A stretch of DNA of 62,948 nucleotides, counting the filler, from an uncultured bacterium (GTDB taxonomy: Bacteria; CAYJOG01): NCBI GenBank assembly GCA_964371695.1. It is 24 parts of 24 records of this genome, joined end to end, with 100 filler letters (N's around TTAATTAATTAA, not from the genome) between each part and the next. Parts side by side here need not be neighbours in the genome. Positions count along the whole stretch, not along the records: positions 13,456 to 16,022 come from CAYJOG010000492.1; 23 more parts are not named here. One strand, 5' to 3'. The number at the start of each line of letters is the position of its first letter. The stretch's first letter is position 1. This document shows, piece by piece, positions 13,223-39,347 of the stretch. The position numbers and the translations under genes were made by a program. The notes below the pieces were generated by a model. The model was given only the letters and a program-made list of their open reading frames with translations, made no database searches and had not been told where the DNA came from.

Positions 13223-13564
13223 GGGGCAAACATATCAAACAAGCGGCGGCGGCCACAAGGCGAAGTTTGATTTCCAGCTTTTTCTCACCACGGGGACTCC
13301 GTCCCCGAACCCCTGCCGGGGGAACAGCGGTTCCCCCGGACCCCCTGTGCATGGCNNNNNNNNNNNNNNNNNNNNNNNNNNNNNNNNNNNNNNNNNNNNT
13401 TAATTAATTAANNNNNNNNNNNNNNNNNNNNNNNNNNNNNNNNNNNNNNNNNNNNCCGCTATCGCCTTTGCTCGGCCAGATGCCCCAATGGGCATCTGGA
13501 ATGACTCCTCGCAAACTCATGGATTTTTCAGGGTGCTTATCAACACCCTGCTAGCCTTATTGAG

Positions 13565-15955
13565 ATGGTTTTGAAACTGCGTCCTGGTTTTTTTGTCTTC
13601 TTCTTTTTACTTCTGTCGGCCCCTTGCGCGCTGGCCATGAACTGCCGCGTGGCGGGGGGCGGCAGCGGCCAGCCGGTGCAGGCAGACCTCACTGCCCTTG
13701 GCACGGTCATCACCACCGGCGTGGACGCCACGGGGGTGTGCGCCAGTGGCGGCTGCAACTATGACGGTCAGGGCGGGGCCACCCCCACCGTGGGAGACAT
13801 GGCGCTGTTGCAGCAGGTTTTTCTCACCGGCAGCGACACCGCTGGCCTGTGTGGCGTTAGCGGCCTTTTCCGGCTTTATGGCGAACTGCTGCTGGACCCC
13901 AACACGCCCCGTGGGGTCATCAGCGCCACCCGTGCGGCACGGGCCGCTTCCTCCGCGCCGTCGTTGCAGGCTCAGGCCGAGGCGCTGGCGGCCCAAGCCC
14001 GCGAACTGGCGCTGTCGCTCAGCACACCTTTTGTTTCACAACCACTGCCCCTGCCAGATTGGCCCGCAACGCTGCCGCTGGATGCTTATTGTGACGCCGC
14101 CGAAGTATGGCCCGGCGAACTCATCCTGCGTCTTAAGCCCGGCACGCTGGCCGCGCCGGTGCTGGAGCTGGCCCAGGGCCTGGGGTTCAGTGTTTTTCCC
14201 AGCCAGTTGCCGGAACGTTTTCTGCTGAAGCTGCCCCAGGCGGGCACGGTGTCACCGCTGGTTTCTTCGGCGCTGGGCGCACAACTCAAACAGACGGCGG
14301 CTGCGGCCTGTCGCGCCCTGCTGGCGCTGCCGGGCGTGGCTTATGCCCACCCCAACGGTGTGCGTTATGCCCGCGCCGCGCCCACTGATTCGCTCTATGC
14401 CGCCCAGCAGTGGAACATGGCCATGATCCGCCTGCCCCAGGCCCGCAGCGTGACTTTGGGCGGCGTGAACGTGGCGGTGGTGGACACGGGTATTTTCAGC
14501 GCCCAGAGTGAGTTCAGCGGCAGGCTGCTGGCGGGTTATGACTTTGTCACCGACCCCACCATCGCCGAAGACGGCAGCGGGCGCGACAGCAACCCCGAAG
14601 ACACCAGCGCCGGCCTGCGCACCAGCGATTTTTCCCACGGCACACACGTCACGGGCATATTGGGGGCGGCCACCGACAACGGCGCGGGTGTGGCGGGCAT
14701 CTGCCCCCGCTGCGACATTTTGCCCCTGCGGGTGCTGGGGGGCGCGTCGCTCACGCTGGGGTCGGTGGATGACGAGGTGGCGGCCATCCGCTGGGGCGCG
14801 GGGCTTTCCGTAAGCGGCATGACCGTGAACCCCAATCCGGCCAGGGTGCTGAATCTTTCCCTCGGCGGTGAAGACAGTTGTTATCCCGATGAACAGGCAG
14901 CCATCAACGAACTCACCGCCGCAGGCGCGGTGTTGCTGGCCGCCGCGGGCAACAGCGCCACCAGCGCCGAACTGGACGCCCCCGCCAAGTGCCAGAACGT
15001 GTTGGCGGTGGGCGCGGTGAACAACCAGAAACAGCGGGCGGCCTACAGCAACCGTCACCTGCTGGGGGGCTGGGGTTTTGTGGCCCCCGGCGGCAGCAGC
15101 AACGACATCATCAGCACCACCGATCAAACCCCCTTCACCGGCGGCATGAACGGCACCAGTCAGGCCACACCCCACGTGAGCGGTGTGGTGGCCCTCATGA
15201 AAACCGTCAACCCCAACCTCACCACGTCACAGGTTTTTGACCTGCTGCGGCAAACCAGCGAAGACCTGGGTGCTGCGGGTGCGGACAACGACTATGGATA
15301 CGGCCTGGTGGACGCCTATAAGGCCGTGATGGCGGCAAAGGGCCTCAGCCCCGCCAGCCCTGCGCCGGTGGCGGATAAATCCGCCCTGGATTTCGGCGCG
15401 GACACCACCAGTCTGGTGAGTCTGGTGCAGCACATTCATCAGGATGATTTCACTTTTTCCACCCCCACCGCCACCACACAAAGCGGCGGCAACTGGCTGT
15501 CGGCTGCCGCCGTGAAAAGCAACGTGCTGGTGGACGGCCAGTCGGTGCCCACCCTGCAACTCACCGCCACCGTCAACCGGCAGGCCATGACCACCGGCAG
15601 CCACACGGCCACGGTGTCGCTGGTCACCTCGGTGGGCACGGTGACCTGGGCGGTGAGCGCCAGCAAATCGGGCGCGTGGCGCGTGCGGGCGCTGGACACC
15701 GGCGGCGGCACACTGGCCACGGCAGCGGTGAGCCAGCCCGGTTATGGTTTTGCGGTGGGGGGCCTGCCCGTGGGCGCAGCCATCAAACTGATTGCCGAAG
15801 AAGACGCCGACAGCGACGGCGCGTATTGCGAAACCGGCGAGTATTGCGGTTATTACGGAAGCGGGGGATTTGTGGGGAGTTTCTCCTCGGCCACCGCCCT
15901 CACCGGCAGCGCCGACACCAGCCAGGGCGGCCTGATGATCACGGTGAGGCGGTAG
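13565..15955 (+). CDS. secreted S8 subtilase with N-terminal dockerin-like module
   Basis: Triad VAVVDTG / HGTHVTG / GTSQATPHVSG, oxyanion AAAGN, signal peptide, Thr/Ser-rich beta C-terminus. Confidence 0.93.
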   Translation: MVLKLRPGFFVFFFLLLSAPCALAMNCRVAGGGSGQPVQADLTALGTVITTGVDATGVCASGGCNYDGQGGATPTVGDMALLQQVFLTGSDTAGLCGVSGLFRLYGELLLDPNTPRGVISATRAARAASSAPSLQAQAEALAAQARELALSLSTPFVSQPLPLPDWPATLPLDAYCDAAEVWPGELILRLKPGTLAAPVLELAQGLGFSVFPSQLPERFLLKLPQAGTVSPLVSSALGAQLKQTAAAACRALLALPGVAYAHPNGVRYARAAPTDSLYAAQQWNMAMIRLPQARSVTLGGVNVAVVDTGIFSAQSEFSGRLLAGYDFVTDPTIAEDGSGRDSNPEDTSAGLRTSDFSHGTHVTGILGAATDNGAGVAGICPRCDILPLRVLGGASLTLGSVDDEVAAIRWGAGLSVSGMTVNPNPARVLNLSLGGEDSCYPDEQAAINELTAAGAVLLAAAGNSATSAELDAPAKCQNVLAVGAVNNQKQRAAYSNRHLLGGWGFVAPGGSSNDIISTTDQTPFTGGMNGTSQATPHVSGVVALMKTVNPNLTTSQVFDLLRQTSEDLGAAGADNDYGYGLVDAYKAVMAAKGLSPASPAPVADKSALDFGADTTSLVSLVQHIHQDDFTFSTPTATTQSGGNWLSAAAVKSNVLVDGQSVPTLQLTATVNRQAMTTGSHTATVSLVTSVGTVTWAVSASKSGAWRVRALDTGGGTLATAAVSQPGYGFAVGGLPVGAAIKLIAEEDADSDGAYCETGEYCGYYGSGGFVGSFSSATALTGSADTSQGGLMITVRR

Positions 15956-22457: not shown

Positions 22458-22622
22458 GACAATGTTGCCGGGTAGGGTGGATGAGCGAGGGGAGGGAATC
22501 GCCCTTCGTGGCCTCGCCATCCTGGCTTGGCCAGCCAGGCAGGGTCGCGCCCTTTCGCGCCATCCATGGCGCTCAGCGCTATGCGCCGGGCGCTTCCTTC
22601 GATTCTCTCCCTGACCACTTCG

Positions 22623-22695
<73 letters not shown>

Positions 22696-37350: not shown

Positions 37351-37435
37351 GCCGGGATGGCGGAACTGGTAGACGCAGTGGACTCAAAATCCACCGGGCC
37401 TTGCGCCCTTGGGGGTTCGATTCCCCCTCCCGGCA
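37351..37435 (+). tRNA. tRNA-Leu(CAA)
   Basis: Acceptor GCCGGGA/TCCCGGC, GTGGA-CTCAAAA-TCCAC anticodon arm, long variable arm; CCA not encoded. Confidence 0.96.
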
Positions 37436-37466
37436 CGAACAAGCCGAACTCACCCAGGAGAAATTC

Positions 37467-39347
37467 ATGCGAAAATACCACCTGCCCCTGTGGGCGGCCC
37501 TGTTGTTTGTCCTGACCGTGGCGCAAAACGCTCTGGCCCACCCGCTGGACAAAGTGTATGGCGCACGCTCAAACGGCCAGATCGACCTGGACACGTTTTA
37601 CCGCTATCTCATTCTGGGACTGCACGCCCCCGTCCAGTTGCCCGCCGAGTTTCAGGACACCCGCCCCACCCGCATGGTCACCATGGCCAAAGCCGACCTG
37701 AACCGCAACTACGACCGCCTGAGCGAGGCCAACAAATCCCTGCTGCGGTCTTTTGGCGTCACGGGCCGCGCCGCCAGCGCCACCGCCGCCTTCACCGGCG
37801 TGGGCAACCTCACTGAAACCACCGACGTCACCGTGGGGGGCACCACCTATCGCATTCACTACACCACCAACACCGGCAACCTCGATGTCACCACCCCCGC
37901 TTTTGTCAACGGCGTGGCCGCCGCCCTCACCACCACGGTGAACTTTCAGAAAAACACGCTGGGTTACCCCATGCCCTACCGCGACCAGCAGGACGGCGTT
38001 TATGACGTGTACCTCTCTGGCCGCGAATGCGGCGACCAGTCCACCTATGGTTATGTCAGCGCCCAGGGCACTCTGGGCGACAACCCCAACAGCACCGCCA
38101 CCGAGACCGATTCGCTGCCCAGCTTTCTGGTGCTGGACAACGACTATGCCGAGTTTCAGGGCGACCCCACACAGAACATGCAAATCACCGTGAGCCACGA
38201 ACACTTTCACTCGGTGCAATTCGGCGTCTCTTATTTCAACACCGCCACCGACACCAGCGGCGTGGAAGGCTCGTGGCTGGCCGAGAGCACCGCCACCTGG
38301 ATGGAAACCCAAGTATACGACGTGTCGGGCACCTACACCGAATACATGGACTCCATTTTTCTGGATCCCGAACTGGGCCTGTTCAATTACGACAACAACA
38401 ACCTGCGGCAATACGGCCATTTCATGCTGCACAAATACATGGAAGAAAACGGCACCGTGGGAACCTCCCAGGCCGAGGGCCGGGCCGCCATTCAGAACAC
38501 CTATTTCACGGCCCGCACCACCGCCAACCAGACAGGCAAATCCATCACCCAGATTTACCGCGAGCAGGTGCAGACGGCCACGCGTTTCACCACTTGGCTG
38601 GACCTGGTGAAGGAGTTTTCCATTGCCGTGCTGCTGCGCACCGCCGACCTGAGCGGCTCAGACGCCTACCAGTTCTCCAAAGCCAGCACCCTGCAAACCA
38701 GCACCAAGGGCAACGGCACCATCACGCCGCCCTTCGTCAACACCAGCCAGACCTTCACCAGCACCACCCTCACCCACAACGGCACGGGCCTGCGGCCCCT
38801 GGGTTATCAGTATCTCAAACTGGTGGTGAACGCCCCCGCCCAGGTGACGGTGGACAACGTGACCGGCGCGGCGCTTTCGCTGAGGGGTGTCACCTTCGCC
38901 GCCGGCGCAGGCACCGACCTCACGGCCACCAGCGCCCGCACTGCTGTCAACGCCACCATTTCGCCAGAGGTGGCGGCCACGTCCACCGCCAGCGCCACCT
39001 TCAACCTCAGCGTGGGCACACACATCCTGCGGGTGCTGAACACCACCATCAATCCGGGGTCCACCACCGCCGCCACCTATCGTGTCACCGTGGCCGCCGC
39101 GCCCCAGGTGAACATCAACTGCAACCTCACCGCCGACAGCGCCGCCACCCATCCCCACGTGGGAGACGCCGCCCTGCTGCTGGACATTGTGCTGGGCACC
39201 AACGCCAGCACCGCCTGCGCGGGCGGGGCCTGTGACTATGACAAATCAGGCAACGCCACGCCCGATGCTGCCGATGTCACCGCGCTCGCGGGCATTGTCA
39301 CCGGCGGCGACACCGCCAGCGTGTGCAACAGCGTGTTTGGTCAGTAA
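37467..39347 (+). CDS. secreted zinc metallopeptidase-like protein with C-terminal dockerin-like module
   Basis: SD AGGAG, signal peptide, SHEHFHSVQ (HEXXH) followed by WLAESTATWME, Thr-rich beta domain, 4-Cys duplicated tail. Confidence 0.85.
   Translation: MRKYHLPLWAALLFVLTVAQNALAHPLDKVYGARSNGQIDLDTFYRYLILGLHAPVQLPAEFQDTRPTRMVTMAKADLNRNYDRLSEANKSLLRSFGVTGRAASATAAFTGVGNLTETTDVTVGGTTYRIHYTTNTGNLDVTTPAFVNGVAAALTTTVNFQKNTLGYPMPYRDQQDGVYDVYLSGRECGDQSTYGYVSAQGTLGDNPNSTATETDSLPSFLVLDNDYAEFQGDPTQNMQITVSHEHFHSVQFGVSYFNTATDTSGVEGSWLAESTATWMETQVYDVSGTYTEYMDSIFLDPELGLFNYDNNNLRQYGHFMLHKYMEENGTVGTSQAEGRAAIQNTYFTARTTANQTGKSITQIYREQVQTATRFTTWLDLVKEFSIAVLLRTADLSGSDAYQFSKASTLQTSTKGNGTITPPFVNTSQTFTSTTLTHNGTGLRPLGYQYLKLVVNAPAQVTVDNVTGAALSLRGVTFAAGAGTDLTATSARTAVNATISPEVAATSTASATFNLSVGTHILRVLNTTINPGSTTAATYRVTVAAAPQVNINCNLTADSAATHPHVGDAALLLDIVLGTNASTACAGGACDYDKSGNATPDAADVTALAGIVTGGDTASVCNSVFGQ

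Follow-up and report, generated by a model that had tools for sequence, protein, structure and literature searches.

A four-cysteine dockerin-like module on a secreted subtilase and a putative metallopeptidase of an uncultured bacterium: a candidate cohesin-binding tether

The window, that is, the whole stretch of DNA that was analysed (62,948 nucleotides), consists of contigs of approximately 2.5 kb strung together with spacers, and comes from an assembly of 3.43 Mb (672 contigs, 83% complete). One of these contigs, C492, carries on the plus strand the gene of a secreted S8 subtilase of 796 amino acids (13565..15955), delimited by its open reading frame, Pfam matches and the layout of its orthologue. 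The protein begins with a probable Sec signal peptide (residues 1-24, 13565..13636, recognised by eye from the sequence), which is followed by a four-cysteine dockerin-like module (residues 26-96, 13640..13852; Cys 27, 59, 64 and 96), a linker with a probable propeptide (residues 97-270, 13853..14374, placed by a weak match and by the alignment of mature chains), the mature catalytic domain (14375..15343) and a C-terminal beta-rich part, all on the same strand. The Peptidase_S8 match (PF00082) spans residues 300-580 at E 1e-48, and the complete Asp-His-Ser triad (D307, H358, S532), accompanied by the oxyanion residue N463, places the enzyme in peptidase family S8. In the pro-region, a Fervidolysin_NPro-like match is weak (E 0.13, under the Pfam cut-off), and in solved subtilases the mature chain aligns from residue 271-273 onward. 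P0013, the orthologue, agrees in domain order and is 45% identical across 785 amino acids.

A different contig of the same assembly, C501, encodes a secreted putative zinc metallopeptidase of 626 amino acids (37467..39347, plus strand), of the DUF6055 / MXAN_6640-like type, with its HEXXH motif at residues 244-248. It matches PF19527 at E 5.6e-7 (Pfam) and NF045524 at E 1e-37 with 130 bits, slightly below the NCBIfam cut-off of 140, and it carries near its C-terminus the second copy of the module (residues 551-620, 39117..39326, plus strand; Cys 552, 584, 589 and 620). A tRNA-Leu(CAA) gene is located 30 bases upstream (37351-37436), and a tRNA-Phe occupies positions 22622-22695 of the window.

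As regards the host, its closest kin in the genome-set search are found at the "same domain" level only, and the source genome appears to be the sole member of its own phylum within the set searched. An Omp85 protein and four secretin matches indicate a diderm with type II/IV-type export.

The original prediction held that the two enzymes share a homologous module of two repeats and four cysteines, and this is firmly borne out: the copies have 25 identities over 71-72 columns, their local alignment score of 116 is reached by none of 5000 shuffles (mean 31.9, sd 6.1, maximum 84), and each of them has an internal two-fold repeat. A profile built from both retrieved four more copies in the genome, which brings the secreted carriers, whose existence had been anticipated, to six; later profiles found no seventh. 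A wider search, across 1.84 billion representatives, gave 29 matches, 19 of which contain the full four-cysteine module (15 of those 19 outside this assembly, one being a close relative). The other ten were excluded: four Ig/PKD repeat artefacts, five Dockerin_1-bearing proteins without the four-cysteine bracket and one pilin. P0027, a pilin-type protein of 179 amino acids with an N-methylation motif, ends in a Cys-containing dockerin-like loop pair. A module search among longer proteins returned seven matches, all already known, and the module is absent from all 40 other genomes examined, every one of them kin only at the "same domain" level. The search family comprises 19 clusters and the family alignment 21 modules, in which four Cys and two Asp positions never vary, the modules of the other carriers being 25-48% identical to the S8 copy. 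The idea that the module can be used at either terminus agrees with its placement, which is N-terminal after the signal peptide in 13 proteins and C-terminal in eight.

Peptidases account for two of the six carriers in the genome, both clear, and for six of the 21 overall: two S8 enzymes and four of the DUF6055 type (P0018 assigned by BLAST only). Among the remaining 15 are propellers of the RCC1, NHL and BNR types, proteins with Ig repeats, one with a nuclease/phosphatase fold, three that are choice-of-anchor V or related FN3 proteins, and several of unknown kind; no cellulase is found among the carriers. The carrier on C303 (L011) extends beyond an N gap, where Ig repeats occupy over 1000 amino acids, and has a weak transglutaminase-like core (E 0.01). 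A short Arg-Ala-Ala-Ser-like motif, possibly a processing site, recurs in the linkers of carriers, for example at S8 residues 123-129, with 14 matches against 3.6 +/- 1.8 in shuffles for a pattern that was written after the sequences had been seen.

Dockerins are the plugs by which bacteria attach exported proteins to cohesin sockets. The AlphaFold model of the module (pLDDT 89.9) consists of two loop-helix repeats with antiparallel helices (15-27 and 52-64) and is superposable on solved dockerins. Ranks 1-13 of the VIA structural search are all dockerin-containing entries (Z 7.2 to 3.1, the first unrelated row having Z 2.9), and the best of them (Z 7.2, rmsd 2.2, 60 aligned residues) falls in a range that, as the tool warns, may reflect a common arrangement. 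The top solved matches are PDB 6KG9, 2CCL, 4FL4 and 5NRK. Foldseek also places dockerins first, with a TM of about 0.6 and no E-value below 0.4, and Atlas points to a Dockerin_1 cluster at 0.93 with 151 shared features. It is thus very probable that the module is a dockerin by fold, as had been supposed.

The calcium-ligand positions, which we take to be positions 1, 3, 5, 9 and 12 of each loop (Asp/Asn/Ser/Thr), are kept at at least four of the five in repeat 2 of all 21 modules and in repeat 1 of 15. In the other six, which include both S8 copies and two others, the first loop keeps only one to three. The earlier description is to be corrected for the S8 copy in the window, whose first loop is degenerate (one of five positions); its second loop keeps four of five. 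From these residues we infer that the module would bind calcium. All 42 loops are 13-17 residues long, none having the usual 12, and 39 of them have Pro at position 8. A Val-Gly-Asp loop end is present in 20 of the 21 modules (15 times in repeat 2, five times in repeat 1), where the Val-Gly pair occupies loop positions 10-11, presumably the specificity positions of dockerins, which suggests that the modules have one partner in common. The four cysteines probably form two disulfides, one joining the first to the last and the other across the linker, as the two-fold repeat would have it. A DsbA-like protein is encoded in the genome, and a search of the assembly (83% complete) found neither DsbB nor VKOR.

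The expectation that no characterised family would match strongly has proved correct, since none of the 21 modules rises above a Pfam or NCBIfam cut-off. The gathering cut-off of PF00404, Dockerin_1 (22.9 bits), is not reached, the best value being E 0.2 for a single module, so the module is not a member of that family. NF041540, a named dockerin variant that is called an anchor (GC-type dockerin domain-anchored protein, dockerin_GC), matches none of the 21 at E up to 10; it touches only the ordinary dockerins of the genome, below its cut-off. A profile comparison with the dockerins among the 29 matches gave 95.5% and E 1.5e-8, a value that is partly circular because the module profile had picked them. 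Module profiles found no dockerin in a sequence search of the PDB, where the best match, a type IV pilin (E 0.011-0.02), was treated as chance. Compared with the type I dockerins of clostridial cellulosomes (PF00404), the module is alike in its predicted fold, its two loop-helix repeats, its length of about 70 residues and the Asp at loop position 12, but differs in that four cysteines are invariant, the loops are longer and have a Pro at position 8, and Pfam fails to match it. No description of a natural four-cysteine dockerin was found in the literature searched, whose coverage leaves most subscription journals outside.

Pfam (PF00963) detects no cohesin in the genome, even at E 10, and this blank ceased to count as proof of absence once a structure search found one. 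The C-terminal domain of a protein on C312, incomplete at its N-terminus at the contig, is predicted to have a cohesin fold (Foldseek E 1.6e-9; Z 17.9, rmsd 1.9, 129 aligned residues); the top 20 VIA rows are all cohesins, PDB 2XDH is among the matches, and Atlas supports the assignment. The same genome thus encodes both the module and a cohesin-like candidate partner, as had been predicted, and a cohesin fold is also what it shares with the clostridial cellulosome. In one carrier, P0014, the module stands at the start and a homologue of the C312 cohesin domain at the end. Directly behind the C312 cohesin gene (L025:1902-2609) there is an adaptor-like protein of 235 amino acids, composed of a signal peptide, a dockerin of a second class and a cohesin-like domain, with a weak full-length cohesin match in Pfam (E 0.11). 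Three further cohesin-like domains (C56, C173, C28), candidates chosen by eye and without a Pfam match, bring the number in the genome to five, candidates included. Searches for homologues of the cohesin-like domains returned nothing beyond the query itself or a single close relative, and metagenome scans gave no relatives of the C312 cohesin protein or P0014. Pfam can therefore miss a class of dockerins together with its likely cohesins, so that the number of cohesin-dockerin systems outside cellulosomes is probably underestimated.

Three dockerin classes coexist in the genome: six near-identical ordinary dockerins (class I), three of the second type (class II) and the six four-cysteine modules. 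Class I genes adjoin a cohesin-like gene on C173, and a class II gene adjoins the C312 cohesin, whose true partner this second-class dockerin may be. The C173 run (L021:52-6546) has three genes, two for ordinary-dockerin proteins and one for a protein that starts with the cohesin-like domain and ends, at the contig edge, in a tail that looks of the FlgD-Ig type by eye, a candidate class I anchor. Five of the six ordinary dockerins (C28, C33, C56, C173, C1; L018-L022) are preceded by a Cys-containing domain of approximately 110 amino acids, seen by eye, that recalls X-module-dockerin pairs.

What relatives of the carriers have in place of the module bears on its role. P0008, which has a signal peptide and the module, is 38% identical to the C48 protein of this genome (G000) across 1053 amino acids, starting just after the module, and the C48 protein has no module and a lipobox-like start (lipobox assigned by pattern and by eye). 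A second swap with a lipoprotein is weak (E 3.8e-5 and E 0.003), which leaves this one as the only firm case; it points toward surface anchoring. A paralogous metallopeptidase on C33 ends in an ordinary Pfam dockerin, and a T9SS type A sorting domain is found above cut-off at the C-terminus of 12 of 37 distant metallopeptidase relatives (38 of 80 loci were taken and one open frame dropped; the 42 omitted are mostly actinomycete). Neither the module nor a class I dockerin nor a cohesin of the C312 type occurs in the 80 loci. The module-bearing protein on C289 has a choice-of-anchor V domain. The swaps with lipobox, dockerin and sorting tail suggest that the slot of the module is often an anchor or sorting slot, a comparative argument and not proof.

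Taken together, these observations favour the reading, to which we assign a probability of approximately 0.6, that the module is a general cohesin-binding surface tether. It would be a divergent dockerin, with two calcium-loop-plus-helix repeats braced by the four cysteines, that serves as a portable tag for Sec-exported proteins, C-terminal in some and directly behind the signal peptide in others, and that most likely binds a cohesin of the same cell. The tether would keep mixed passengers at the envelope (peptidases, proteins with propellers or Ig repeats, and one choice-of-anchor V protein), a task for which other bacteria employ lipid anchors or sorting domains. The three dockerin classes would probably be joined via small adaptor proteins and not by one large scaffoldin. 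General linkers of this kind have been described in ANME and other archaea as non-cellulosomal dockerin-cohesin proteins with varied passengers unrelated to cellulose; according to the available part of that report they are, unlike the module, archaeal and seen by standard domain libraries, some having up to five cohesins (PMC9012536).

Subtilases cleave off their own propeptide. Since the S8 module precedes the propeptide, it would depart with it, and maturation probably removes the module. In that case what is tethered would be the zymogen or an inhibited complex, not the free enzyme, and self-cleavage would release the mature protease unless it is still bound to its propeptide. A bolder version, which we regard as doubtful, is that three orthogonal dockerin-cohesin address codes and their adaptors build the surface of this deep-branching diderm, with the four-cysteine class replacing lipid anchors and sorting tails, and that a module placed before the propeptide parks an inactive zymogen until self-cleavage releases it, forming a releasable depot and not a fixed scaffold.

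Another way of looking at the module is to accept the dockerin fold and suppose a partner other than cohesin (the module itself, a surface polysaccharide, the S-layer or the secretion machinery, via calcium), so that it would act as a sorting or adhesion tag. The altered loop length and the nearly invariant Pro would suit this explanation, as would the fact that the module profile does not match the ordinary dockerins of the genome (score 7.9, the level of shuffles) and that cohesin-like genes adjoin those of class I (C173) and class II (C312) dockerins but none of the six module genes, which are scattered. However, enzyme-borne dockerin genes are normally scattered, which makes this arrangement unremarkable, and both the fusion of module and cohesin in P0014 and the residue pair common to 20 of the 21 modules at the recognition positions speak for a cohesin, which renders this explanation rather unlikely.

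The original prediction went further than a tether and proposed a protease-specific complex, in which several peptidases would be brought together on a scaffold of multiple cohesins so as to act jointly, in the manner of a cellulosome. As a new idea it does not stand, since such systems have already been proposed. The planctosome of Nemodlikiaceae has been proposed as a cohesin-dockerin assembly that comprises an anchor protein, an adaptor bearing both dockerin and cohesin, and peptidases as its passengers, and the C312 gene pair resembles its layout, both being known as proposals only; the planctosome belongs to another lineage and has M12B and M14 peptidases, whereas here S8 and DUF6055-type enzymes are found and most passengers are not peptidases, and the accessible text on it mentions no cysteines, of which the module has four (PMC6461901). 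In Ca. Stygibacter (Cloacimonadota), like the module host an uncultured bacterium of diderm type, a cellulosome-like complex has dockerins on S8 and other peptidases; those dockerins, as far as the accessible part of the report goes, are C-terminal and visible to databases and are accompanied by a multi-cohesin scaffoldin of 3755 amino acids (PMC8542988); the former does not hold here, where no such scaffoldin was found either, in an assembly that is 83% complete. S8 proteases are also present in true cellulosomes, according to the portion available (PMC12484212), and dockerin-rich giant proteins occur in Omnitrophota, as the accessible portion of a preprint has it (bioRxiv 2023.11.21.568195). 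These proposed precedents (PMC6461901, PMC8542988) lend the dedicated proteolytic complex some plausibility, and so does the recurrence of both fusions in other organisms (the S8 enzyme P0013; the metallopeptidases P0015, P0018 and P0019), together with a third metallopeptidase of this genome, on C106, which breaks off at the edge of its contig and shares 81% identity with the module-bearing P0019. Against it, no peptidase can be recognised in four of the genome's six carriers or in 15 of all 21, and the cohesin-like proteins that were found have one such domain apiece: no multi-cohesin scaffoldin or tandem array was found in a repeat scan judged by eye (672 contigs, 83% complete, cohesins evading sequence search). 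The host also differs from the clostridial cellulosome in being a diderm, in having no cellulase carriers and in that no scaffoldin was found. That the S8 module lies with the propeptide, ahead of the probable cleavage site of maturation, further weakens a fixed protease scaffold, and the proteolytic complex is accordingly judged improbable, more so than a non-cohesin partner. Least credible of all is the view that the module is a remnant, or serves for stability only, and binds nothing, which the decayed loop 1 of both S8 copies and two others and the small family (19 clusters) might suggest, but against which stand the six invariant residues and the conserved Val-Gly-Asp loop, retained despite 25-48% identity to the S8 copy, and the module's recurrent fusion, at either terminus, with unrelated proteins.

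What is gained under the tether reading is a dockerin variant that standard databases miss, peptide-degrading cohesin-dockerin systems as such having been proposed before. With three dockerin classes and five cohesin-like domains, this one genome offers a small testable set for roles outside cellulose breakdown, and a disulfide-braced, possibly orthogonal dockerin-cohesin pair would suit designed enzyme assemblies.

Some features of the genome were noted in passing. Upstream of the S8 gene (13456-13555) lies an intergenic repeat of 60-100 bases, REP- or MITE-like, with dozens of copies at at least 90% identity on many contigs. C199 (L106) carries a pilin- or pseudopilin-like gene cluster, and one end of this contig shares 55 bases with the S8 contig, a link that is uncertain because the overlap runs through a repeat; contig-end overlaps gave no extension for C312, C303 or C106. 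Very large repeat-rich exported proteins are common (C4, C62, C25, C16, C122 and others), with an open frame of up to 6807 amino acids, and a short motif of the Gly-Trp-Asn-Leu type is shared by seven ORFs, lying inside a C-terminal domain in C51 and C75.
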